Shown here piece by piece: positions 24,086 to 56,080 of a stretch of DNA of 64,000 bases; the stretch's first letter is position 1; each line of letters opens with the position of its first letter. Origin of the DNA: Eledone cirrhosa (Eukaryota). Both the position numbers and the translations under genes were made by a program. Location of the stretch: NCBI GenBank assembly GCA_964016885.1, contig OZ024748.1, forward strand, positions 29,264,001-29,328,000, given 5' to 3'. The notes under the pieces were generated by a model. It did not search any database, had not been told where the DNA came from, and saw nothing but the letters and a program-made list of their open reading frames with translations.

Positions 24086-25410
24086 ATGGAGCAACTGAAA
24101 AGTTCTCTTGACCTTTTGTTTGGCAAGTTTTCTTGGCTGGATGACATTCCTATCACTTTACAGAGTATAAAAACAGGGGCTAAAAAATTCATAGGCTTAC
24201 TATGAAGGAGTGATGTTTGGGCTGTGTAATCTTGCATGCATGAATTTCAACTCCTATTAATAAGTGCACTGTTTCTTTCCAGCTAAACAAACATCTGACA
24301 GTTCAAAGAAGAAAATGGACAAAATTTGGCATCGTGGTGTTATCAAGTACCTGCAGAAAAAGGGTTTAACCTCCAAGGACATTCGTGCTGAGATGGTTGC
24401 TACATTAGGGGATGACGCTCCAGCTTTATCAACAGTGCAAAAGTGGGTAGCTGAATTTAGGAAGGGAAGAGAAAATCTTGAAGATGGCCCAAGATCTGGA
24501 CGTCCTGCAACTGCCACCACCGAGGGAAACATTGATCGTGTTCACCACATGGTGATGGATGACAGGCGATTGACTATAAATCAAATAGCCAATGCTATTT
24601 GCATATCCCGTGAGAGAGTTGAGAATATTCTGCACAATGAACTTGGCATGACAAAGGTTTCTGCTCGGTGGGTGCCACACCTTCTGACACCTGATCAAAA
24701 GCACACTAGGCTGATCATATCACAGAAAAATCTGACATTGTTTGAGGCAGATCCAGCTGGTTTCCTTGAACGTTTTTTAACCCAGGATGAGTATTGGGTT
24801 CATCACTTTGAGCCAGAAACAAAAATACACCCCTCCTCACCTGCTCCAAAGAAGGCCAAGGTCGTTTCATCTGCAGGGAAGGTGATGGCTTCAGTTTTTT
24901 GGGATGCAAAAGGCATTGTATTTATTGACTATCTTCAAAAGGGCCGCACCATCAATGGAGAGTACTACGCCAACTTGTTGAGGCAGTTACAAAAGGCTAT
25001 CAAGACCAAACGCCCAGGAAAACTGACAAAAGGGGTTTTGTTTCACCAGGACATTGCACCAGCACACCAGTCCTTGGTTTCAATGGCTGTTGTGCATGAC
25101 TGTGGTTTTGAATTGGTTCATCACCCTCCCTATTCTCCTGATTTGGCCCCATCTGACTACCATCTATTCCCCAACATGAAAAAACTCTTGGCTGGAAACC
25201 AGTATCACAGTGATGATGACGTCATAACTGCTGTTGATGACTTTTTTGACCAACAGGATGAAAGCTTCTTCACCAATGGGATCCAAGCATTGCACCACCG
25301 GTGGAAGAAGTGTGTGGACTGCAAGGGTGATTATGTTGAAAAATAAAGCTCATTTGGTCACATTCTATAAGAGTATCTAGGTCAGCCTTAGAACTTTTCA
25401 GCTTACCCCC
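24086..25410 (+). mobile_element. mariner (DD34D) transposon, open transposase frame 24264-25346
   Basis: WVPHLL, TQDEYW, FHQDIAPAH, YSPDLAPSDYHLF; TIR core ctgaaaagttct at 24095 and inverted at ~25390. Confidence 0.9.
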
Positions 25411-25959: not shown

Positions 25960-26244
25960 GTATTGTAGTAGATAAATAATTTTTATGTTTTTCAGGAAAT
26001 ATCAATGAACTCAGAAATGTTGAAACTTATCAATGTTTAGAATGATATAATTTTGTTTATATATATAATCACTTTCCTTATACATTTCTGTGAAAAACAC
26101 TTTCAATTTCTTTACTTTATTGACCATGACTTCTTGTATTTCTTTGGGACTAGCATCCTACATTGATGTCCTGAGGATACATTAGTGTTACCTGTTTACA
26201 TTAAAATTTAAACGTGTGTAGATGTTAATAAAATGATTTGAAAT

Positions 26245-29200
26245 CATCATCATCATCATCATCACCGTTTTTACGTCCGTTGTTCCATGTTAGCATGGGT
26301 TAGACGGGTTGTCCTGTTGTAGGCAGTGTCTGGTCAGCTGACCATGCCTTGCTCATACAGGAAATGATTTGGCTTGATTTCTACAGCTGGATGCCCTTCC
26401 TAACACCAACCTCATTTACAGTGAGTGCTGGGTGCTTTTTCGTGGTGCCTACACGTCCACTTTACAGTGTGGGCTGGGTGCTTTTTTGCCGTGGCACCTC
26501 CACGACCAACTTGCGGTTGGGGGTGTGGGGGCATATTGTCTATATGCTTCAGCTTGTACCCATGGGAGGTCGGGTACTCTGTATTACTGCGTGACGCCAG
26601 AGGTCATGGTCAGGTATCATCGCCTTTGAGAGGTGTAATTGGGTAAGGTCGGCTTTTATCACCTCATCCCAGGTCATCTTGGGTCTCCCCACTCCGTGGT
26701 TTCCATCGACTTCTAGTGCTCTGCACCATTTTATGCAGCTGTCATCCTTCATACGCATCACATGTCCATACCAGCGCAACCGCCTCTCCTGCACACAACA
26801 TTTGATTCCTCTTATGCTCAGTCTCTCTCTCAATTCATTTATGCTTTGTTGTTCACGTATATTACTATTACACATCCATCGGAGCATGCAGGCTTCATTT
26901 CTCTCTAATCTACGTAAGTCTTCCACCTTCAGCGCCCAGGTCTCACTACCATGCAACATCGCTGTTTGGATACACGCATCATACAGTTTGCCTTTCATTT
27001 TGAGGGAGAAGCCTTTTGCAGCTAGCAGTGGTAGTAGTTCCCTAAACTTCTTCCATCCCGTTCTTACCCTAGTTATTGTACTTTCCGAACACCCACCTCC
27101 GCTGCTAATTCGGTCACCTAGGTAGCAGAAGCTGTCTACTGTTTCTACAGAGCCCTCCCAGAGATTGGTGGTACTTGTTTCCTGTGGTTGTTTGCTGCTT
27201 GCTGTCCCAGCACAGCTGCTGCATGTGAAGCCTATATTCTTAATTAAGCTTCCTGAGATCCCGCTACATCTCTTGTGTACCCATTGTTTGCATTTGGGGC
27301 AGAGAATGGAGTTTCTACCTACACCTTTCCTACATACTGAGCAAGGCCATTTCCCTGAGGGGATCTGGGTTCTGTTTTCTCGTCTACTTACATGGACCTT
27401 AGTCTTTGTCATGGTGACTTTGAGACCCTTTCTTTCTAGTCCCTGCTTCCAAGTTTGGAATTTCTTCTCTAGTTCTACCATAGATTCAGCTATAAGTGCG
27501 AGGTCATCAGCATACAGGAGTTCCCATGGGCATCCGGTCTTAAACTCCTCCGTTATTGCCTGCAGGACTATGATGAACAGGAGGGGGCTAAGAACAGAGC
27601 CCTGGTGGACCCCAACCTGTACGCTAAATTCCTTGCTATACTCATTGCTAATCCTAACTTTGCTGACTGCTCCCCTATACATGGCTTGTACCGCTTTCAC
27701 AAGCCATTCATCTACTCCTAGTTTTCTAAGAGCCCACCAGATTACAGCACGTGGAACTCTGTCAAAGGCTTTCTCAAGGTCGACAAATGCCAGGTAGAGT
27801 GGCTTACTTTTAGCTAGGTACTTTTCCTGTAACTGCCTCACAAGGAAGAGGGCATCAGTGGTGCCTCTTCCTGGTACAAACCCAAATTGCATCCCGTCTA
27901 GTTTCACCCGGTCCCTAATCAACTGTGCTATAACTCTTTCTGTTACTTTCATGACCTGGTCCATCAGCTTTATACCTCTATAGTTTCCTCTATCTAGTGC
28001 ATCACCTTTACCTTTGTAGCAGTTGACAATGATGCTACTGCACCAATCTTTTGGTATGACACCTAGTATTACCTGGTTAACAATACGTGTGGTTATAGTG
28101 TGACCTACAGACCCAGATGCTTTCAGCATCTCGGCAGCTATACCCGATGGACCGGTTGCCTTCCTCATCTTCATATCTTTGATTGCCTTACTACGTTGCT
28201 GCTGACTTGTACTGCTGGCCCCTCTATAGGGTCTACTTGGGGTAGGGTCTCTTCTTCCCATGCATTCTCCTCATTTAGTAATCTATCATAATGACTCTTC
28301 CATGCATCTTTCTTCTCAGCACTTGTGAGGGCAAGCTCACCTTTATCATTCCGGATACACTTCTCTCCAATGACATCACAACTCTCTCTGATACACTGCC
28401 TCACAATCTTGAACACCTCCTGTTTCTGGTCCTCACGTTGCAAAACATGCTTGAATTTTCTATCCTCTGCTTCCCTCCTAGCTAAGTATACTTGTCGCCT
28501 AGCTTCCCTCTTGGTCTCTATGTAATGTACCCTGCTCCCTCCATTCTTCCATTCTTTCCATGCCTGTCTCTTGGCCTTAACTGCCTCATCTACCTTATTG
28601 TTCCACCACCAAGTCACTTTCCTCTTGCTTGAGGTCTTACTCCAGCCACAGACCTCATCCGTCGCCTCTAGTACGTTATTTTTTAGGAACTCCCAGTTCT
28701 CTTCTATATTGAATGTCTCTATCTGTTCTTCTTTACTGTCGTAGGCGTTGAGTAAAATATCTTTAAATCTGTTACTGGTTGAGGGGTCTTTCAGCTTCCA
28801 GATCTTTCTTCTCCAGGTTCGTCTAGTTCTGACTGAGGTCGCTGACAACTAAGCTATGTTGGGATGTACATTCCTCACTAGGGAAGGCTTTTGTGTTTAC
28901 GACCGTCCATCTGTCACGTCCTCTGATGAGGATAAAATCTATCTGTCTAGAGTGCTCCCCTGATCTATAGGTGATCAGGTGGTTGTCGGGTTTTTTAAAG
29001 TTTGTGTTACATATCGACATGTCATTGGCGTCGCAGAATTCTAGAAGTCTTCCTCATTTCTTGTGCCAACCCCATGTACTCTATTGAAGCCTTCGCGGTG
29101 TTTACCTACGTGTCCGTTAAAATCTCCTGCGATGATTAGGAAGTCCTTGTCGTCTGTTAGAGCAGTAGTGTGCATTAGGGACTCGTAAAACCTATCCTTA

Positions 29201-29620
29201 AGTTTGTCTGGCAGCCCCGATTGGGGTGCGTAAGCTGATATTATTGTGGTAATTGTTTTATTCAGGACTAGTCTGAGTTTAATGATTCTTGCATTTACCC
29301 TGTACACTGAGATTACTTTATCTACCCACTTGTCAGCTAGTAGTATACCTACACCACCCATCCCATCGTCATTTCCCACCCAGAAAAATTTGTAGCACCG
29401 ACTTTTTCCTACAAGGACTCTAGCAGACTCTCCTCTCCATCTAGTCTCTTGCACACAGCATACATCAATTTCCTTTCGCTCTCGCATTTCTACGATTTCT
29501 CCTGCTCTTCCTTTCATTGAGCCTACATTTATGGTACCAACTCGGCGTTTTGGGCATTTGTTGAGACTCGTAGGGAAGGGTCTCTGGATTGGTGCTTCAC
29601 ATGGGTGCTTGGTAGCTCAT
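26245..29620 (-). mobile_element. Near full-length RTE LINE (APE + RT), frameshifted
   Basis: ORFs 29041-29517 (CVQETRW, AGDFNGH), 28823-29020, 28171-28848, 26549-28261 (YADD); 3' UTR and (ATG)n tail. Confidence 0.95.
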
Positions 29621-29899: not shown

Positions 29900-30870
29900 C
29901 AAGACGTAAATTATCCACGTATTGTTCGTACTATCCGTTAGGGTATAATGTGGGGCTGTAATACAGGAAAGTTTTATGCAATTTATGTTTACAAGCTGAA
30001 ATTGCCTCAGATTTTTTGTTTAAGATGTGTCATTGGCGTAGAGTATTTCCAGGGCTTCAGCAGCGCAAAGATCGCATGGTCTTTTATTTCCATTATACGA
30101 TCCAGCCTTAGCTAGGATCTCCCAGTGTAACTTATATTGGGTGTGGTTGTCTTTTAGACTCCAGATATAAGCTGAAAGTGACGTCATATTCTTTCTTAAA
30201 GGGTTAAGAAAAGAATGGGTGTGCATGTAAAGACGCTGCTTGAATCTATTGGCAGTTAACCCTATGTAGGGACGTGGGTGTTTCGACCTTACATTTGTAG
30301 ACAATGTTACTGGAGAGGCATTTCCCGGATAAGGGGCAGTCAACCCAATTCCTACAATTACAGTTAGTACTAGCTATAGGGTTGCACGTGTTCCTATGGC
30401 TAGGTAATTTGGCTAAATTTGAAGCAGTGATGTTATGTGCAAGGTTAGGAGTCGTAGAGTAAGAAATTTTAATGGTATTTCTATTAAAAATGTTATATTT
30501 ATGTGCTGAGGGGAAATTCTTAATATGGGAGAGAAAGATCTAAGCTAATGGTGTGGCCACCTCCATATTATATGGTGGGTTATACCATATAATGCGTTGG
30601 GATCTATTTTTCCTTGGTCTATGCTCATAAATAGTATATGCTACCTTATCGACAAATCCACTCCGAGCAAGAGCTTCATTATAATATGTGGAAGGGTTGG
30701 TGAAAATATGCTTGTTTGTAGATAGACGAGAAAGCCTCAAAGAAATGTTTCTTACCAGATTCTTGGTTATGCTGGCAGGATGGTTAGAATACTTATTTAT
30801 GTAATTAAGCGTATCATTCGGCTTTCTATACGGGTAGTGCAAGCCATTCGAAAAATTGAGGGTAACGACC
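29900..30870 (-). mobile_element. Penelope-like element fragment (RT thumb + GIY-YIG), decayed
   Basis: YRKPNDTLNYINKYSNHP, IIWYNPPY, YIGLTANRFKQR..H..SF, CDLC..E. Confidence 0.85.
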
Positions 30871-31448
30871 GAGAGGTTGGCCTCAACCTATATGGAGAGG
30901 TTGGCCTCAAACTGTATGGAGAGGTTGAAGCCTATATACATATATATATATGCTCAGGTGCAATAAATAGTTTTGTCTTTGTGTGTAATTGTTCTCATCG
31001 CTCCACATAACGATGTATCATCTTTGCTTTTTTTCCATTCATTGCCAGGGAACGTCTCCACGAACCAAAGTATCGTCTGCCTGTTTTCCTTCCGTTGCAA
31101 CGTTTTTCAAAATATTTCTGCGTTCACAGATTGATTTTTTTTAGTTTCAGAAGATCCCGTTAAAGGTGAAAGCAGCGATTCTTTGCTTAAACTTTAATCT
31201 GTCATTTTAATAATAAATATTTGCTCTAGGGTTCTTATATATTTGATATATATTTAGCCTTATTGAGCCCTCTTTGGATTTTAGTCTTCAAATTTATTAT
31301 TATTACTATATACATATATATATATATATATATACATATATATGTATATACATACATATATATGTATATATACATACATATATATGTATATAAAAATGTA
31401 TGTATATACATACATATATATGTATATACATACATATATATGTATATA

Positions 31449-32055: not shown

Positions 32056-34550
32056 CATCATCATCATCATCATCAACGTTTAACGTCCGTGTTCCACGCT
32101 TGCATGGGTTTGGACGGGGGTAGTCCCACTTGAGGCAAGAGTGATTGTCTTGCTCGCATAGGACTGTCTGGCAGGTTTTCTACAGTTGGATGCCCTTCCT
32201 AACACCAACCACATTTACAGTGTGGGTCTGGGAGGTTTTTACCGTGTTGCCTACACGGCCACATTACAGCGTGGACTGTGTGTTTTTTTTGTCATGACAC
32301 CTACACGATCTCATTTGTTTCGGCCTCGATGGCGCGGCACCAACATAACTTTACATAGAACGGGGTGGGGTGGGGGTGGGACGGGGTGTATTTTGTTAGA
32401 GATGCCTACTGGCTGGAGTAGGTTTTATTATATATATATATATATTATATATATACTCTTTTACCTGTTTCAGCCATCCGGCTGAGGCCATGCTGGGGCA
32501 CCGCCCTTGGATATATATATATATATATATTCATCATTTCATTTTACGTCCGCTTTTCCCTGCTTGCAAAGGTGGGACGGGAACTGATTCTGGCTTGATT
32601 TCTACAGCTGGATGCCCTTCCTAACACCAACCTCATTTACAGTGAGTGCTGGGTGCTTTTTTACCGTGGCACCTACACGTCCACTTTACAGTGTGGGCTG
32701 GGTGCTTTTTTTCCATGGCACCTCCACGACCACTTTACAGTGGAATGATAGGGACCTCAGTCCCTATAATCTCATTTCTACAGCTGAGTAAACTGGAGCA
32801 ATGTGAAATAAAGTGTCTTGCTCAAGGAAACAACACATCACCCGGTCTGAGAATTGAACTCACAACCTTTCGATTGTAAGGCCAATGCTCTAACCACTAA
32901 GCCATGTGCCTTCATATATACATATATATAAATACATACATACATGGAATAGAATGAAACGAAATTTCATTTCTCACTCTTAGTTCGGCACTTACTTAAA
33001 TGTAAGTATGTAAGTTTACAAACAAACAAACCGAGCATTATAATAAATGTTCGGTGAACCGATACGTGCATATATATATGTGTGTACATATATACATACT
33101 ACTGTACGTCTGTCTACATATATGTATGTACGTATACATACATACATACTTATATAAATACATATATATATAAATACATATATATAAATACATACATATA
33201 TACATACATAAATACATATATATATAAATACATATATATATAAATACATACGTATCATCATCATCATCATCATCAACGTTTAACGTCCGTGTTCCACGCT
33301 TGCATGGGTTTGGACGGGGGTAGTCCCACTTGAGGCAAGAGTGATTGTCTTGCTCGCATAGGACTGTCTGGCAGGTTTTCTACAGTTGGATGCCCTTCCT
33401 AACACCAACCACATTTACAGTGTGGGTCTGGGAGGTTTTTACCGTGTTGCCTACACGGCCACATTACAGCGTGGACTGTGTGTTTTTTTTGTCATGACAC
33501 CTACACGATCTCATTTGTTTCGGCCTCGATGGCGCGGCACCAACATAACTTTACATAGAACGGGGTGGGGTGGGGGTGGGACGGGGTGTATTTTGTTAGA
33601 GATGCCTACTGGCTGGAGTAGGTTTTATTATATATATATATATATTATATATATATATATATATATTCATCATTTCATTTTACGTCCGCTTTTCCCTGCT
33701 TGCAAAGGTGGGACGGGAACTGATTCTGGCTTGATTTCTACAGCTGGATGCCCTTCCTAACACCAACCTCATTTACAGTGAGTGCTGGGTGCTTTTTTAC
33801 CGTGGCACCTACACGTCCACTTTACAGTGTGGGCTGGGTGCTTTTTTTCCATGGCACCTCCACGACCACTTTACAGTGGAATGATAGGGACCTCAGTCCC
33901 TATAATCTCATTTCTACAGCTGAGTAAACTGGAGCAATGTGAAATAAAGTGTCTTGCTCAAGGAAACAACACATCACCCGGTCTGAGAATTGAACTCACA
34001 ACCTTTCGATTGTAAGGCCAATGCTCTAACCACTAAGCCATGTGCCTTCATATATACATATATATAAATACATACATACATGGAATAGAATGAAACGAAA
34101 TTTCATTTCTCACTCTTAGTTCGGCACTTACTTAAATGTAAGTATGTAAGTTTACAAACAAACAAACCGAGCATTATAATAAATGTTCGGTGAACCGATA
34201 CGTGCATATATATATGTGTGTACATATATACATACTACTGTACGTCTGTCTACATATATGTATGTACGTATACATACATACATACTTATATAAATACATA
34301 TATATATAAATACATATATATAAATACATACATATATACATACATAAATACATATATATATAAATACATATATATATAAATACATACGTATCATCATCAT
34401 CATCATCATCAACGTTTAACGTCCGTGTTCCACGCTTGCATGGGTTTGGACGGGGGTAGTCCCACTTGAGGCAAGAGTGATTGTCTTGCTCGCATAGGAC
34501 TGTCTGGCAGGTTTTCTACAGTTGGATGCCCTTCCTAACACCAACCACAT
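32056..34550. repeat. Tandem segmental duplication (~1.14-1.2 kb unit: RTE tail + SINE + spacer + microsatellite)
   Basis: Identical ORF translations at offset 1136 (32646/33782, 33016/34152) and a shared ORF start at offset 1200 (32186/33386). Confidence 0.95.
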
Positions 34551-35197
34551 TTACAGTGTGGGTCTGGGAGGTTTTTACCGTGTTGCCTACACGACCACAT
34601 TACAGCGTGGACTGTGTGTTTTTTTGTCGTGACACCTACACGATCTCATTTGTTTCGGCCTGGATGGCGCGGCACCAACATAACTTTACATAGGATGGGG
34701 TGGGGGTGCTGGTGGTGGGACGGGGTGTATTTTGTTAGAGATGCCTACTGGCTGGAGTAGGTTTTACTGTATATTTAGGTAAGGCGGGTCTTCTCTGTTA
34801 CTGAGTACCGCCAAAGGTCTCGGTCCAGTGACATTGTCTTGGAGAGGTGTAAATGTGTGATGTCGGAGTTTATCAGCTCGTCCCAGGTTTTTCTAGGTCT
34901 GCCTATTCCGTGACTACCGTCTATCTTTATTGCCCTGCACTTTGTTATACAGCTATCGACTTTCATGCGCATCACGTGTCCATACCAACGTAGCCTTCTC
35001 TCGAGTAAACAACATCTGATCCCTCTTATCTCTAATTTTTTCCTTAGTTCGTTTATGCTTTGCCGTTCACGTATATTACTGTTACACATCCAGCGGAGCA
35101 TGCAAGCTTCGTTCCTCTCTAGTCTGCGTATATCCTCTGCACACAATGCCCAGGTCTCACTGCCATGCAGCATTGCTGTTCGTATGCAGGCATCGTA
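34391..35197 (-). mobile_element. 5'-truncated RTE LINE
   Basis: [29 protein letters not shown], nearly identical to 61648-62468. Confidence 0.9.
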
Positions 35198-37161
35198 TAT
35201 ATACATATATATAAATACATACATATATATACATATATATAAATACATACATATATATACATATATATAAATACATACATATATATACATATATATATAC
35301 ATACATACATATATATACATATATATAAATACATACATATACGTATATATAAATACATACATATATATACATACATACATATATATACATATATATAAAT
35401 ATATACATATATATATATATATATATAAATACATACATATATATATGTACATTTATATATAAATACATACATCTATATATACATACATATAAATACATAC
35501 ATATATATATAAATACATATACATATAAATACATATACATATATATATATAAATAAACACAAATACATATATACATATAAATACATATACATATATATAT
35601 AAATAAATACAAATACATATATATATATAAATACAGATACATATATATATATATAAATACATATACATATATATATATAAATAAATAAATACAAATACAT
35701 ATAAATATAAATACATATACATATATATATATATATAAATACAAATACATATACATATAAATATATATAAATATATATATATATATAAATACAAATACAT
35801 ATACATATAAATATATATAAATATAAATACATATACATATAAATATAAATACATATAAATACATATACATAAATACATATACATATATACATATATATTT
35901 ATATATGTATATATACATATATACATATACATATATGTAAAGAAAGAAACCCAGGCCTAAGATATATTTATAAATGATGCTAATCTAAAACACATGAAAA
36001 TGTCACAGGTGTGTTTGTCAGATCATCTTCACCAACAAAAGAATTTTTCAAATTCAATATATTTTTTGTGGTTATTGTCGTTATTTGTAGATGATAGTTT
36101 TATTTTCATTTTAATATATCTTCCTCTCAATTTTCAGAATTAAATCAGTTTTACTTTCTGTCTTTTTCTTTTTCTCATTTATAATTGATGCAAGTGGTTT
36201 CTATTTTCATTGATATATGTGGTCTTTAATTGTTCATGAACATAAGTGGGTTTTAATAATTTATAATGTCAGCATCATCATTTATCTAATTAAATAAATG
36301 GCCATATTTGCTTTGTTTCATTTGATTTTTTTAAATGATATAAGTGACTTCAAATGTATAATTTTTTAATGATATAAAATTATTCCTTATTTTATATTCT
36401 TGCTTAGATAATTGGCATTAATTGAGATTTAGATAAATTAATTAAAATATAATCTAAATTTAGGAAAAATAAATCATTTTTAAAAATCCATTTTTTACCA
36501 TCCATGTAAATATCTCCTTATATAACCAATACTAGATTTTCCTATTACATATTTCACCTTATTCTCCTCTCCTCTATTTATCTCTTTCTCATTCGCCCTG
36601 TTCCTTTTATATCTTATTAACAAGTTCTATTCTGATGTACATCCACTTCCCTTCACAATACCATCAATCCCAACTAAAAAAGTTCTTGATTTATGAATAA
36701 AATTTAAAAACATTATAACATAGCTTACTTTCCAATTTTATGTATATATTTACCTTATCATAATGAAAATCTGACGAGTAACTTTGAGAGTATTTTAATA
36801 AAATATTTTATATATATATATATATAAATATATATGTGTGTGTGATTCTGTATATATATATATATATATATATAATACGAAAAAAATGCTGAAGCACCTA
36901 CGCTATATATATTTATATAGATATATCAAATTGGGTATGTTTTGGAAGCCATTACAATGCAGAGAGATTTTAAATATTAAGGTAACAAAATTGAATGAGG
37001 AAGTAGACAGGTGAAAGTATAAAGAAGGGAAGATAAACAAGAAACCAGAGATTATGTTACCTTGGAAATATATATTAATCCTAATATACACTATTCATTT
37101 TTAAAGATGTGTCGGGAAACTTGGGGAGCATCAGAGATGAATTATATGTATATATATATAT

Positions 37162-37556
37162 ATTCTGTATGAAGAACTCAATGTAATCCATATGTTGAAA
37201 ATGTTGTAGGTTAAGCTAAATCTCAGACAATAAAACATTAAAAGGAAAACAGAGTCATGAAATAAAAAATCAAGTCATTAGAGATACACTTCACTGCTTT
37301 ACGATCGTTTCCAGATGGTGACAATACATTGCATCTACACTCAGTCACTGATCTATATAAGTTTACAAACTATCAGATAGAGAGAATATTTACTTACATG
37401 CATATCACCAGCTGTTTTCAAAAGCAATAATAATTTTATTCTGATAGTTTGTAAACTTACACAGATCAACAACTGAGCACAGATACAATGTATTATCACC
37501 ATCCAGAAACGATCAGAAAGCAGTGAAGCACATCTCCAATGACTTGATTCTCTATT
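37162..37556 (-). mobile_element. Non-autonomous Penelope-derived foldback with decayed long-stem-II hammerhead
   Basis: 110-bp inverted arms 37268-37377 / 37440-37549; GAAACGATCG, tgatagtttgta and ggattacattgagttcttcatac shared with the element end at 55729-56040. Confidence 0.8.
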
Positions 37557-37572
37557 TTATTGTTTTAACTTA

Positions 37573-37604
<32 letters not shown>

Positions 37605-38195
37605 CAGTATTTACGTATCGAGAAAGAGAAAAAAAGGGGAGGATAGGTGATAGATATAGTTATTTGCCAAGTAGCGTATGCCAAAGGTGCTTGATACTAG
37701 TGTCGGCAGTATTAAATATTCGATATACATATATATATACATATATATAGTAATAAATATACATATATATATACATATATATAGCAATAAATATACATAT
37801 ATATAGTAATAAATATACATATATATATATACATATATATATATACATATAGTAATAAATATAGATATATATATATACATATATATATATACATACATAT
37901 AGTAATAAATATACATATATATATATACATATATATATATATACATATATATATATACAAACATATATATATATATATACATATATATATGTATACATAC
38001 ATATATATATATACATACATATATATATACATACATATATATATATACATACATATATATATATACATATATATATATACATATATATATATACATATAT
38101 ATATATACATACATATATATATATACATATATATATATACATATATATATATACATATATATATATACATATATATATACATATATATACATATA

Positions 38196-38250
<55 letters not shown>

Positions 38251-38263
38251 ACATATATACATA

Positions 38264-38301
<38 letters not shown>

Positions 38302-38419
38302 CATATATATACATACATATATATATATACATACATATATATACATATATACATACATATATATATACATATATATATATACATATATATATACATATAT
38401 ATCAAAAAAAATCAACAAG

Positions 38420-40460
38420 CTGAAATACTGTCAGCAGCAACACATCAACTTGACTGCCATTTCATCACTAGAGATTAAAAAACATAACCTCCAAAACAAC
38501 ATAATGTCCCTCATCAACAATCAGAGAAGAGCTGAAGAGGCCTGGGCCATTGAGAAGATCAAACTCAATCCCAAAGTGTTCTTTTCATTTGCAAAAAAAC
38601 ACAAAATCACTGGCTCTACTGTTGGCCCTCTAATTGATGAAAATGGCACTCTTCAAGACAATGCTAAAACCATGGGTGAGATACTGCAGAAACAATACTG
38701 CTCTGTTTTCAGCAATCCTGATATGGCCGATCTGGGCTGTATCGGCGATGTTACTCCCCATTACACCTTATCGGACATAACGTTTGGCGCCCCTGATGTC
38801 TTGGCGGCAATAAAGGAAATCAAGCATAATTCAGCAGTAGGTCCCGATAGGTTCCCTGCTTGTGTCTTGAAGGCGTGTCAACACCAACTTGCTTCTCCTC
38901 TTGCCAATCTGTGGCGGAACTCACTGGATGCTGGATATGTGCCAGAAAACCTTCTATCCCAGTCTGTTGTCCCAGTTTTCAAAAAGGGAAACAAATCCCT
39001 TGCCGTGAATTACCGTCCAATCTCACTCACCTCTCATATCATTAAGGTATTTGAGCGAGTGGTGAGATCGCGAATGACCCACTTCCTTGAGAGTAACAAT
39101 ATGCTGAACTCCAACCAGCATGGATTCCGTAATGGAAGGGATTGCCTGACGCAACTACTGCATCACTTTGATGACATTTTGAGAGCCTTGGGAGAGGGTT
39201 CCAACACTGATGTTATCTACCTTGATTTCAGCAAGGCCTTTGACAGGGTTGATCATAACATTCTACTGAGAAAGCTGTCCAATATTGGTGTCACTGGAAA
39301 GCTGCTGCAGTGGATCAAGAGCTTCCTGTCAAACAGAACCCAACATGTTGTAGTTGAGGGAGTCAAATCAAGCCCAGCCAAAGTCAGTAGTGGAGTCCCA
39401 CAAGGCACTGTGTTGGGCCCACTTCTCTTCATCATCTATATTAATGACATCACTGACATCATCAAACACAGCAACATTAAAATTTTCGCTGATGATTCCA
39501 AGCTCCAAAAGGTCATCAATGGCGTGGATGACCGGATAAGCCTTCAGTCAGACCTACTGGCTGTTACCCAATGGGCAGAAAAGAACAACATGTTACTGAA
39601 CGAAGACAAATTCGAACTGATCCACTTTGGAAAAGAGGATGCTCTGAAACTCCCGTACTCCCTTCCCTCCGGGGAAACTCTCGTGGCATCTAACAACATC
39701 AGAGACTTGGGAGTAACCGTGGACAGCAACATAAGCTGGACCACGCATATAAGCAGCAAAGTTGACATGGCCCGCAGAATGTGTTCCTGGATCCTCAGAA
39801 CCTTCCAGTCGAGAGATTCCCGCACCATTATCCTTCTCTTCTCTACTTTCGCCCGACCACACCTTGAATACTGTTGTCCACTGTGGTCTCCCCACACGAA
39901 ACAAAGTATCATGAAACTTGAAGCTCCTCAAAGGGCAATCACGAAAAAGATAGATGGCATGTCAGACCTTGACTACTGGGGTCGATTGGAAAACCTGAAA
40001 CTTTACTCACTCCAACGTCGCCGTGAGCGTTATATTATCTGCATGATGTGGAAAATGTTCCATCATCACTGCCCAAATGATGTTGGCATCGCCTTCAAGA
40101 TACACCCAAGGCTTGGGCCCCGTGCTATCCGTCCCATTCAAAAATCTAAATCGCAACTCATAACAACAATACGGCACAATTATTTCACCTCAATCGGCCC
40201 TGCTCTCTTCAACATCACACCAGGACACGTCAAAACAGAAACTGACCACACAAAATTCAAGAAGTCTTTGGACAAATTCCTCCAAGTAATCCCGGACAAA
40301 CCACCCACACCCGGATATGTCTCCGCAAACAGTAATTCTCTTCTCGAATGGGCCATGGTGCCCAAATCCTGAATTGAAAGACTTCGCCAGGTGGTGCTAT
40401 TAAGTTAGACATGGCCTGGGCCAATACTGGCCAAAACATTTCAAAGTTATTCAAAGTTAT
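38420..40460 (+). mobile_element. 5'-truncated CR1-group LINE with uninterrupted RT frame (38450-40372)
   Basis: [50 protein letters not shown]; (TTCAAAGTTA)2 tail; no endonuclease domain present. Confidence 0.9.
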
Positions 40461-42723: not shown

Positions 42724-44819
42724 TCAAGGTGGTTGAGTTATCATAGGAATGTCAATCCAGTTACAGATCAGATGTGATTTCAGATGAGGACAACATCTGA
42801 AGATCTCGGTCTTTGAGTTCAGGCAAGCAGATGTGGCTTTCAAGTTTAGCAAAATCCTATATTTTTCTGTGGTACACAAAGAACAATTCTTTGTGCCCCT
42901 TTGGTACTCCCTCGAATGGTCTAAAATAGACCAATCAATAGAGTACGGGATGTTTTTATCCTTGAATTCCCACACCTTACTTGCGAGGGCCATTGTTGTT
43001 CGTTTATCGGAGTGCTTAAAAGAAGCGACATGTGCATAAAACCTGGTTTTAAACCTGTCCTGGGTCATGCCGACATATCGCTCACTCCTGGCTGGCTGGT
43101 TGTTGATTAAAGGTGTTACTTTAGCCTCATAAACAACAGATTTGGTGTTACATTTGCCCTGCAATGGGCATTCATCCGGCTTCCTGCAACTGCATCCTGG
43201 ATTTGTTCTTGTATGATTTGAATTAGTGATCTTGGACTTCATAGGTGGGCAACAAGAGTAACTGATCTTAACTACATTCCTATTAAATATCTTATAATAT
43301 CTATGATTAGGAGGAAAATGTTTATCTAAGAGTTCAAGGAATTTCCTTCCTACATTAGTTTTGACAGAGAGAAGGGGGTGTAAACCAAATAATTTTCCTT
43401 TTCCTGTTATTGTGGTTAGTTTTAGGGGGGGGAGTAGGTAAATAATAAATTTGTTCTGTGAACCGCTGTTCTTAAGGGCTTTATTATAATAAGGGGCGGC
43501 TTTATTAAAAATATCTATAGACGAAGATAAGGTAGAAATCCTACGGCTAATGTTGGGAATAAGATTATTAAAAACTATAGGGGGATGGCAAGACTGTATA
43601 TACCTAAGATTTTCGTTAGGTTTATGATAAGGTTTAAAAGAGGCAGTAAGTAGATCAAAATTAATATCAAGAAAGTTAGCATTGGTAAGGTTCGTATCTA
43701 TAGTGATTTTAAGGTTAAGATTAGCAAAAGTGTTGATTAAATCTTTACGGAATTTATCAAGGTTATGGCCATTGGTGGTATGAGAAACTGCCAATCCGTC
43801 ATCACGGTATAAACCGATATTATGGGAAGGAAATTTCTCTTTGAGGGTGTGGAGAAGGAATAATCCTACTAAGTCACACACATCCACACTGTCATATGAA
43901 CCCATTGCAACATCAAAAGAGTTTTCAGGGTTTGACTTTTTAACCCAAATATTTTCATTAGTAAAGAGTAAAGTTTTTCTAGCATGAAAGATAATGTCTT
44001 CTTCTAATTTAGAAATATTAATGAAGGGTCTTGCAAACTCTAAGGCATTAGTTAATAAGGAAACAGTAATAGAGTGGTAAAAATCAACAATATCAAATTG
44101 GGTAAATCTACACTTATTTTTACCTTGTATATTATTAAACCAAGAAATAACAGAGGAAGTATTTAGCCACTGTGATAGATCAGTCTTAGTTCTAATTTGG
44201 AGAATTATTTTTCTTAAGATTTTTTTATTTGCAAGGCCAACTTCGGATTAGGTCGATTAGTAAAGTCTAATTTATGGTTTTTAAGGGTAATATATGCTTT
44301 ACGCTTAGCTAGGCTTTCAATCCGGTTGTCTATTTTTAAAGAACTAGTTAGTTCTTTAGCTTCTTTATTAATAGTATTGTAGGTATTATTATTAGTTAAT
44401 TGATATTTGTTGGTGATACTATTAGTTAAAAGTTGGTTATACAAAGTACTATTAACTTCAAAGAGATTTTTAGTTTTATCAGAAAGAACAAAGGTGTTTG
44501 TAGAATTTTTAAAATTAGAAATATCGTTAGACAGTTTAGTTTGAAAGTTATTATTGTACTTACGAAATTTGATATCACTAATTAAATTAACAAGGTCTAA
44601 TTCGAAGTTGGCCATGTCTTTAATTCTAGGTGGATATTTATGGGATTTTATGTCAAAACAATCATTAGTATCACCACTGAATAGTCCATCATAAACCATT
44701 GCCTTCTATCTCATTCTTTTAACGACTTGTTCGATTTTATCTATAAGCATTTTGGTATAAGTAGTGTTGGAAGGAGTAGGTATATTTTTGATTGAATAAT
44801 CCAATTCATAAAGCTCCAT
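42724..44819 (-). pseudogene. Penelope-like RT + GIY-YIG ORF, full length but with a stop and frameshifts
   Basis: MELYELDYSIKNIP..KRMR*KA, QFDIVDFY, MGSYD, GLYRDDGL, CSC..CPL.GKC, YVGMT, CSLC..EK, CPH. Confidence 0.9.
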
Positions 44820-47653: not shown

Positions 47654-47719
47654 TATATAAAATATTAAAAAAATAATGAATAAAACAATGAAACAGTTCC
47701 TTATATTAAACAAAAAAAG

Positions 47720-47873
47720 TTCATTATTTAACGATCGTTTCTAGGATATATATGTGTTAGAATTGGCATGCATATTCAACAGATCTATGTACAAAATTAT
47801 ACAAAATTATACAAACTATCAAGATTAAATATACATACCAACACATATATATGCCGTCTTCAGAAATAATGAA
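47720..47873 (-). ncRNA. Hammerhead ribozyme with 115-nt stem II
   Basis: Mirror copy of 55729-55882. Confidence 0.8.
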
Positions 47874-48568
47874 ATATATTTATTGATAATAACAACAATT
47901 CAAAATTACAGGTCTGTTTGGGAACAGAGTTCAAATTGACCAATGAAAATACAAAAAGTTTATACAGTTAGGTGTGTGTATATATGTAATTAACTTCGTT
48001 CACTGATATGCATAAAGATATATGTTCACATGCATACGCATGCCAAAAAGATGTATGTAAATACAAAAATTCAAGGCTAATGTCTCTGTATGTCCATAAT
48101 CTACAGATAAAACACGCATACACATATAAATATAAAAACAAATATACACACACATTCATATACTCACACATATACGTACATTCACACACACACGCGCGTA
48201 TACGCATAAACATACACACAACCACGAACATACATACACACACACACCCCCACATACATATATATGTGTATATAGTATTATCATAAGCATATGGACATTA
48301 ATGCGCGCACATAAACACTGCCACACATATTTAGATCCAGATACAGAAATTAGGTGGGGGGGGGGGGAAGAGGTCAGTATTCACCGGTGTCAACAGACTG
48401 CCTATTTATAAATGTATCTATAAATTTAGAAATAAAAAGAAAAGAAAAAGAAAAAAGAAATATATCAAGAAAATATATATATATATATATACATACACAC
48501 ACATACATATACACATACATATACATATATAAACAAGTAAAATATAAAATATATATCGATATACATAC

Positions 48569-48607
<39 letters not shown>

Positions 48608-48776
48608 TATATATATACATATATATACATACACATACATACACATATACATAAACACATACATACACATACATATACATACACACACCATATAAATACG
48701 CATACACATACACACATATATATATATATATATACACACATACACGCATACATATATATATATATATACATTCACA

Positions 48777-54767: not shown

Positions 54768-55728
54768 TGTGAATGTATATATATATATATATGTATGCGT
54801 GTATGTGTGTATATATATATATATATATGTGTGTATGTGTGTATATGTCTATGTATTTATATGTGTATACGTATGTGTCTCTATATGTATGCGTGTGTGT
54901 ATGTGTATGCGTATTTATATGGTGTGTGTATGTATATGTATGTGTATGTATGTGTTTATGTATATGTGTATGTATGTGTATGTATATATATGTATATATA
55001 TATATATGTGTATATATATATATATATATATGTATATGTATGTATATCGATGTATATTTTATATTTTACTTGTTTATATATGTATATGTATGTGTATATG
55101 TATGTGTGTGTATGTATATATATATATATTTTCTTGATATATTTCTTTTTTCTTTTTATTTTCTTTTTATTTCTAAATTTATAGATACATTTATAAATAG
55201 GCAGTCTGTTGACACCGGTGAATACTGACCTCTTCCCCCCCCCCCCACCTAATTTCTGTATCTGGATCTAAATATGTGTGGCAGTGTTTATGTGCGCGCA
55301 TTAATGTCCATATGCTTATGATAATACTATATACACATATATATGTATGTGGGGGTGTGTGTGTGTATGTATGTTCGTGGTTGTGTGTATGTTTATGCGT
55401 ATACGCGCGTGTGTGTGTGAATGTACGTATATGTGTGAGTATATGAATGTGTGTGTATATTTGTTTTTATATTTATATGTGTATGCGTGTTTTATCTGTA
55501 GATTATAGACATACAGAGACATTAGCCTTGAATTTTTGTATTTACATACATCTTTTTGGCATGCGTATGCATGTGAACATATATCTTTATGCATATCAGT
55601 GAACGAAGTTAATTACATATATACACACACCTAACTGTATAAACTTTTTGTATTTTCATTGGTCAATTTGAACTCTGTTCCCAAACAGACCTGTAATTTT
55701 GAATTGTTGTTATTATCAATAAATATAT

Positions 55729-55882
55729 TTCATTATTTCTGAAGACGGCATATATATGTGTTGGTATGTATATTTAATCTTGATAGTTTGTATAATTTTG
55801 TATAATTTTGTACATAGATCTGTTGAATATGCATGCCAATTCTAACACATATATATCCTAGAAACGATCGTTAAATAATGAA
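55729..55882 (+). ncRNA. Hammerhead ribozyme with 115-nt stem II
   Basis: TTCATTATTT CTGAAGA [115 nt self-complementary] GAAA CGATCG TT AAATAATGAA; 10-bp perfect stem I, palindromic stem III. Confidence 0.8.
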
Positions 55883-56080
55883 CTTTTTTTGTTTAATATA
55901 AGGAACTGTTTCATTGTTTTATTCATTATTTTTTTAATATTTTATCTTGACTCTGTATTCCGTTTATCTTTCACCGAAAGTGATATTTCATTGCATCTCT
56001 TCTTTCCATGATATCCGGATTACATTGAGTTCTTCATACGGATTGGACACTACCGTAAACTCTTGGTAGATTTATCTACA

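Follow-up and report, generated by a model that had tools for sequence, protein, structure and literature searches.

Can an edit made in an RNA molecule pass into the inherited DNA of an animal? The question is raised by a hairpin in the genome of Eledone cirrhosa, within a 64,000-nucleotide stretch analysed here as the window (GenBank assembly GCA_964016885.1, contig OZ024748.1, positions 29,264,001 to 29,328,000 of the forward strand; C8 below). The two arms of this hairpin (37268-37377 and 37440-37549) pair in a single ungapped register with 92 matches over 110 positions, and 17 of the 18 mismatches are A.C on the plus strand, that is, G.U on the minus strand, the remaining one being A.G. 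Predicted fold energies are -167.0 kcal/mol for the minus strand and -125.1 kcal/mol for the plus strand. A preliminary description of this DNA had counted 16 of 16 transitions of one polarity once a dinucleotide mismatch at 37301-37302 was set aside; this count is correct, and the dinucleotide mismatch is inherited, as it is also present in the parental copy on C14 described below. Its statement that 15 of the 16 were TA>CA changes is right in that 15 are derived T>C on the plus strand, but UA context applies to 14 of those 15. The 16th site (37357/37460) is instead an older G>A change at 37357, common to the C14 parent and the window, where 45 of 48 aligned letters from other family copies are G. 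Derived A>G changes at 37550 and 37552, just beyond the arm ends as first drawn, bring the total to 17 arm changes.

One copy of the family, at C14:12820935, has the loop and both flanks in common with the window hairpin, and its own hairpin is unedited. The match extends over a block of about 4.8 kb (33667-38400, minus strand), putatively a retrocopy of read-through RNA, which is nearly identical to G000:C14:12817266-12822131; internal probes of the block found full-identity matches at only two places in the assembly, the window and C14. Over 2,903 non-microsatellite columns, the two copies differ by 29 substitutions: 17 T>C changes on the plus strand of the arms (A>G on the minus strand), one in the tail of the element and 11 background differences. 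Microsatellite columns were excluded from all counts, alignment being unreliable there, and three candidate T>C sites within them (35486, 35522 and 37785) were left out. Other copies assign at least 7 of the 11 background differences to the C14 side, including 37510 and 34745, which appear as T>C against C14 yet are C14's own changes and were dropped before counting. At all 17 arm sites, both the family and the C14 parent carry A/T, which is thus the ancestral state; the G/C ancestry that the preliminary description had considered as a counter-case does not apply.

Read on the minus strand, the changes follow the structure of the hairpin. Comparison with the C14 parent places 10 derived A>G changes in the 5' arm of the minus-strand RNA, which is the inverted copy of the element (37440-37570; sites 37462, 37470, 37478, 37480, 37504, 37529, 37531, 37537, 37550 and 37552), and seven in the 3' arm (37262-37377; sites 37287, 37312, 37322, 37332, 37338, 37346 and 37348). 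Adenosines were changed at 17 of 91 positions in the arms, at none of 22 in the loop (37378-37439) and at one of 28 (37216) in the unpaired tail of the foldback element (37163-37261). The copy also lacks 18 nt of the parent near 37261, at the base of the stem, and 3 nt near 37226. With the parent as reference, chance is no explanation for the pattern: 17 of 91 arm adenosines changed, but in the remainder of the block only 1 of 919 did (Fisher p=7e-18); none of the 88 plus-strand arm adenosines changed in the opposite polarity.

The changed adenosines stand out in both neighbouring base and pairing state. Rates in the arms depended on the 5' neighbour (UA 14/33, AA 3/28, CA 0/13, GA 0/17; p=2e-5), and when only adenosines after U or A are considered, 17 of 61 changed in the arms versus 1 of 32 in loop and tail together (p=0.005). 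Within the 22 bp beside the loop, none of seven UA sites changed, compared with 14 of 26 farther out (p=0.013), leaving a spared zone roughly symmetric about the loop. The two arms were changed on the same strand but at different sites, which implies that both were present in one molecule; a fold-back made during insertion would instead have given identical changes in both arms. Another large hairpin does not have the same bias, a point on which the original proposal could have failed: a 1,023-nt inverted repeat elsewhere in the window (47657-48679 and 54923-55945, 94% complementary), which serves as a control for hairpin-linked artefacts, contains 22 A.C and 24 G.T mismatches. Its arms are flanked inward by long TA/CA arrays. 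Non-repetitive DNA within the copied block (35940-36805) is identical between the window and C14 over 866 nt, with 0 of 369 minus-strand adenosines changed, and its first 361 nt match nowhere else in the assembly. The (UA)n arrays of the same RNA were almost unchanged (C share 0.213 versus 0.204 and 0.183 versus 0.170).

The pattern is private to the window copy among the family members compared, so that it is not a structure conserved in all copies. A search of the genome with the element returned 1,342 candidates, of which 40 were scored, and a 28-nt degenerate arm motif matches 666 places in the assembly. All 23 loci fetched were foldbacks, mostly in TA microsatellites, with arms mostly near-perfect and a fold centre that differs between copies; most of the 23 combine an inverted copy, truncated at its 5' end, with a short 3' tail that measures some 130 nt and lies on one side only. 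With a natural copy (L006) as the reference, 28 A>G and 22 T>C were scored in the 8,930 core-arm columns of 49 further copies, which include 33 foldbacks and no duplicate fetches; no single copy exceeded three A>G. Seven of the copies were fetched with patterns that force one G, which biases the sample toward A>G. The window copy has 15 A>G and no T>C in 221 core-arm columns (p=3e-14 versus the 49 others). Six targeted motif searches yielded no second hyperedited copy in the foldback family, 666 arms of which match the family motif: two of them found the window only, the other four found 5, 2, 3 and 3 places, and no place other than the window had more than three A>G in the core arms. Two motif searches in a second repeat family likewise found no hyperedited copy. 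In their core arms, two foldbacks on C1, L010 (G000:C1:289738454) and L075 (G000:C1:263971000), carry three A>G each but lack T>C; they are possibly lightly edited, and neither is significant alone.

The foldback family looks Penelope-like in layout, yet we do not assign it to Penelope-like elements, since neither a hammerhead nor a coding frame was found: Rfam hammerhead models had no match in the window copy or in four other foldback copies (minimal variants could escape them), and no coding frame lay within 1.5 kb upstream in the five copies examined. The only Rfam matches in these scans, of microRNA type and below threshold, fell on hairpins and TA repeats. In three copies (L013, L018 and L019), private changes are common to both arms of a copy, which shows that a single molecule was the template of each fold-back or that its arms were homogenised afterwards. 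The loop of L003, compared with those of L001 and L002, nearly matches the window loop in reverse complement, which could reflect either an inversion between the arms or the same fold-back junction formed in mirror image. Elsewhere in the window, broken frames on the minus strand at 42724-44705 and 30020-30887 had no Pfam match in the three pieces scanned, and by their motifs we take them to resemble a Penelope-type reverse transcriptase and GIY-YIG. A 360-aa open frame on the plus strand (24264-25346) presumably resembles a mariner-type transposase. Positions 37600-37723 belong to another young repeat family of 124 nt, with many copies 97-98% identical and some in close inverted pairs.

How the block reached C8 can be approached from its ends. 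It starts with a minus-strand SINE (33667-34046) whose head is tRNA-like (33983-34040) and whose 3' part also occurs in a LINE; the SINE's (GAT)n tail marks the start of the block, which further includes a 3' fragment of a related LINE (34400-35190, minus strand). The SINE head scored 28.8 bits with the Rfam tRNA model (E=1.3e-4), just below the gathering score of 29, and ARAGORN called no tRNA gene there. A LINE at 26240-29616 (minus strand), which carries a reverse transcriptase frame (RVT_1 E=8.5e-31), matches the SINE at the 3' end with 93.6% identity over 156 nt, and both end in (GAT)n; this LINE belongs to the family that probably supplied the enzyme. The Atlas assigns the partner LINE to RVT_1 plus PHD clusters only, and its tail type suggests that it may be of the RTE clade. 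At the left junction, the window copy starts inside the SINE tail, immediately next to pure TA repeat; C14 has an array ahead of the tail, and the window copy lacks it. The block ends within a TA/CA array (37723-38400). Arrays of this kind adjoin a 450-nt repeat core on C14 and in other copies (the anchor was found in five other copies of seven fetched), but the window has no such core. To its right lies a 5'-truncated LINE of another kind (38401-40460, plus strand; RVT_1 E=9.6e-32).

A third copy (C1:143186910-143187672), also starting in this SINE tail, spans the SINE, continues past its head into the DNA upstream and breaks off at 0.76 kb. The copies on C8 and C1 therefore have a fixed 3' start in one tail and different 5' ends (4.8 and 0.76 kb), as is expected from target-primed reverse transcription when such copies lie on different chromosomes. 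The C1 copy (L045, L048) shares two states with C14 that the window lacks, and, being a second 5'-transduced copy, it suggests that C14 may be a repeatedly active source locus. The route of copying thus appears to be SINE-tail 5' transduction of a read-through RNA. In SVA elements, upstream read-through that ends at the element's 3' tail carries upstream DNA along and is subject to 5' truncation; here, too, the read-through would end at an element's 3' tail, carry upstream DNA and be 5'-truncated, but a SINE with a tRNA-like head and microsatellite tail takes the place of SVA, and its cargo would record RNA editing. Because the block starts at a SINE 3' tail, the minus strand is identified as the RNA strand independently of the mismatches; the earlier choice of minus as the sense strand, made from shared motif order, agrees with this SINE head-to-tail polarity. 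We rejected the idea that the hairpin element moved alone, both flanks being common to C14 and the window. The earlier proposal of hyperediting, reverse transcription and write-back to DNA is supported in substance, but the carrier would be a 4.8-kb read-through from another chromosome and not the element's own jump.

We hold with moderate confidence that C14 was the donor. This direction rests on indirect signs, among them the truncation of the window copy in an array that on C14 meets the repeat core, such arrays being common; against it, C14 accounts for the majority of the 11 background differences. Target-site duplications are unreadable because both ends of the block lie in TA repeats or microsatellite. 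The copy has no intron-sized deletion, and the C14 donor shows no intron to lose, so neither feature marks the copy as derived from RNA; a crude open-frame listing recognised no host gene in 150 kb around the donor. Next to the block, its SINE end is duplicated in tandem (32511-33666, minus strand), probably because two LINE 3' fragments later underwent unequal crossover. Over 359 nt, truncation point included, the LINE fragment at 32071 is identical to that at 33272 (both within 32066-33666), and the pair differ at six sites from the fragment at 34411, which fits such a crossover, although the tandem duplicate at 32066-33666 may also be an assembly duplication.

Taken together, these features make it likely that a read-through RNA from C14 was hyperedited by an ADAR within its hairpin and then retrocopied into C8 through a LINE enzyme primed at the SINE tail. 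That an ADAR was the source of the changes, by whatever route, we regard as very likely. A minus-strand read-through RNA from C14 would form a duplex of about 130 bp, as predicted by folding, in which ADAR would turn approximately 40% of the UA adenosines into inosine. At the SINE tail ending this RNA, a LINE reverse transcriptase would then have primed on a TA repeat on C8, read inosine as G, slipped twice near the base of the stem to leave the 18-nt and 3-nt deletions, and halted after 4.8 kb, presumably in the germline or early embryo. From the sequence differences observed we infer that C14 is transcribed on the minus strand and edited by ADAR, as well as the enzyme involved and the timing. 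The observations include the features expected of ADAR hyperediting (derived A>G on one strand, confinement to a duplex, depletion of 5' G and ADAR-family genes in the genome) and of non-LTR retrocopying (a fixed 3' start with variable 5' truncation). PF02137 (A_deamin) scored above its cut-off at four loci of the genome, identifying an ADAR-family deaminase (ADAR or ADAT). One of these loci has an open catalytic frame, whose catalytic motifs presumably match those known. At G000:C6:13644405-13646174, A_deamin matched in two long pieces only, versus many-exon matches on C1 and C25. Observations that count against the ADAR reading include the sparing of the 22 bp beside the loop and the near-unchanged (UA)n arrays, which could have paired with themselves in the same RNA.

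Alternative histories were weighed against the same evidence. The block could have been duplicated as DNA between TA repeats, with cDNA of an edited hairpin RNA later overwriting the hairpin by gene conversion. Such a course would suit block ends that both lie in microsatellite, the lack of intron loss, the clustering of the two small deletions at the hairpin base and a background divergence mostly on the C14 side, but it leaves unaccounted for a left junction that falls inside the SINE tail, with C14's own array there dropped, and a C1 copy that begins at the same tail and is 5'-truncated; we consider it quite unlikely. Very unlikely in our view is error-prone DNA synthesis through the hairpin, whether by a polymerase of the eta type or by a nucleotide-starved reverse transcriptase. 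A 5' context of U or A is also typical of polymerase eta, and since all 17 sites follow U or A, context alone cannot single out ADAR; the deletions at the stem base could likewise mark stalling. The argument for ADAR rests instead on confinement: an error-prone patch would have had to skip the loop (0 of 18 such sites changed) and resume on the other arm, while leaving the 866 nt of AT-rich neighbouring DNA identical. It would also have had to change 42% of UA sites with no other type of substitution, a rate far above polymerase error rates.

Could the assembly itself have produced the pattern, either through mis-polishing at the hairpin or because the window holds a misplaced second haplotype of C14? 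A background divergence from C14 of only 11 substitutions in 2,903 columns, about the level of alleles, would be compatible with this, as would the finding that aligned contigs of run X1 never show the window letter at 37287, 37322 or 37348, although contigs drop rare variants, and on the same terms the edited letters of the left arm are absent among them. In the right arm, however, a public contig of this run (depth 12.5), which may come from the assembly's own sample, aligns to 37412-37528 with two differences from the window, whereas in the same interval the C14 parent differs from the window at seven positions and the next-best of 50 alignments at 10. Thus, at least three of the five edited letters there exist outside the assembly, even though the contig is not identical to the window and its alignment ends at 37528, four letters before the contig does. 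No RNA run is among the sequencing runs listed with words of the window, and the best share of such words (0.41) is no evidence, since 38% of 31-mers also occur in the parent or other copies. No such signature is present in the 33 other foldback copies of the same assembly, the block meets the SINE tail at a junction exact to the base, like that of the C1 copy, and even if a second haplotype were involved, the 17 changes would have to be explained; we hold an artefact to be highly improbable. CpG decay, cytidine deamination or a conserved G.U structure have next to no probability: G.U pairs do leave the minus-strand fold nearly intact, as conservation of structure would require, but all three are refuted by the polarisation of the changes, the ancestral A/T and the restriction of the pattern to the window copy. 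ADAR hyperediting followed by retrocopying accordingly remains our preferred reading, although the evidence is limited to one event in this genome.

The return of edited RNA to DNA has counterparts in other systems. In plant mitochondria, work by Sloan in 2010 reportedly described retroprocessing, in which edits are written back to DNA through cDNA. The locus on C8 is similar in that edited RNA would have returned to DNA by way of cDNA, but the mitochondrial edits are C-to-U, site-specific and organellar and restore conserved sequence, whereas those proposed here are promiscuous nuclear A-to-I edits that created a new locus. In its workings the locus resembles avian retroviruses (Rous-associated virus as well as avian leukosis virus), in which an RNA inverted repeat underwent ADAR-type A-to-G hypermutation of about half of its adenosines at most (Felder 1994 and Hajjar and Linial 1995, as summarised in PMC12925331). 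There, as apparently here, A-to-G changes in inverted-repeat RNA were carried through reverse transcription; the viral cases are exogenous, while the present one would be a non-LTR retrocopy belonging to the host, found in an assembled animal genome alongside the parent, which is still there unedited. APOBEC G>A fossils in retroelements of vertebrate genomes are established (PMC4866542, PMC2873906), and they, too, are clustered, strand-biased changes of one type, frozen in a retroposed copy and polarised against relatives. The APOBEC changes are nevertheless G>A and arise by cytidine deamination of single-stranded cDNA, in contrast to A>G confined to an RNA duplex. In the text of PMC4866542, the term ADAR is absent and A-to-G serves only as a filter.

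Coleoid cephalopods edit RNA heavily. Exceptionally high RNA hyper-editing with depletion of 5' G, the latter a metazoan ADAR signature, is described for octopus (PMC5625713), and squid ADARs are broadly transcribed (PMC9068888). Coleoid hyper-editing resembles the window hairpin in its dense A-to-I changes within near-perfect repeat duplexes and its depletion of 5' G, but it compares RNA with the genome, while our comparison is of DNA with DNA between paralogues. In cells, ADAR1 editing of L1 RNA went undetected over more than 2.5 kb (PMC5224506), and for one mouse provirus with an A>G excess the changes were considered not to fit ADAR context (PMC12548423). A search of the full-text literature, with subscription papers largely and supplements outside its scope, found no report of a natural ADAR-hyperedited retrocopy in an animal germline or genome. 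The unedited parent makes the claim from these sequences unusually clean, and the single locus limits it.

If the proposed reading is true, RNA editing is a source of heritable DNA mutation. A-to-I editing has usually been treated as non-heritable, and genomic scans of retroelement editing have centred on APOBEC G>A. This locus, itself probably neutral repeat DNA, offers a copy together with its parent, and the comparison suggests that RNA edits made their way into inherited animal DNA. It makes testable whether ADAR acts on repeat RNA in the germline, whether inosine-rich RNA passes through LINE reverse transcription in nature and what share of A>G repeat divergence in heavily editing animals is RNA-derived. 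More tentatively, and with somewhat less than even confidence, we suggest that ADAR editing could be a recurring germline mutator in this lineage, with SINE-tail read-through RNAs retrocopied after hyperediting to leave scattered edit fossils. Were this so, each fossil would preserve, next to the unedited parent, the editing of one molecule in the germline or embryo, and such fossils would date and measure past ADAR activity and constitute a route by which edits become genomic G.
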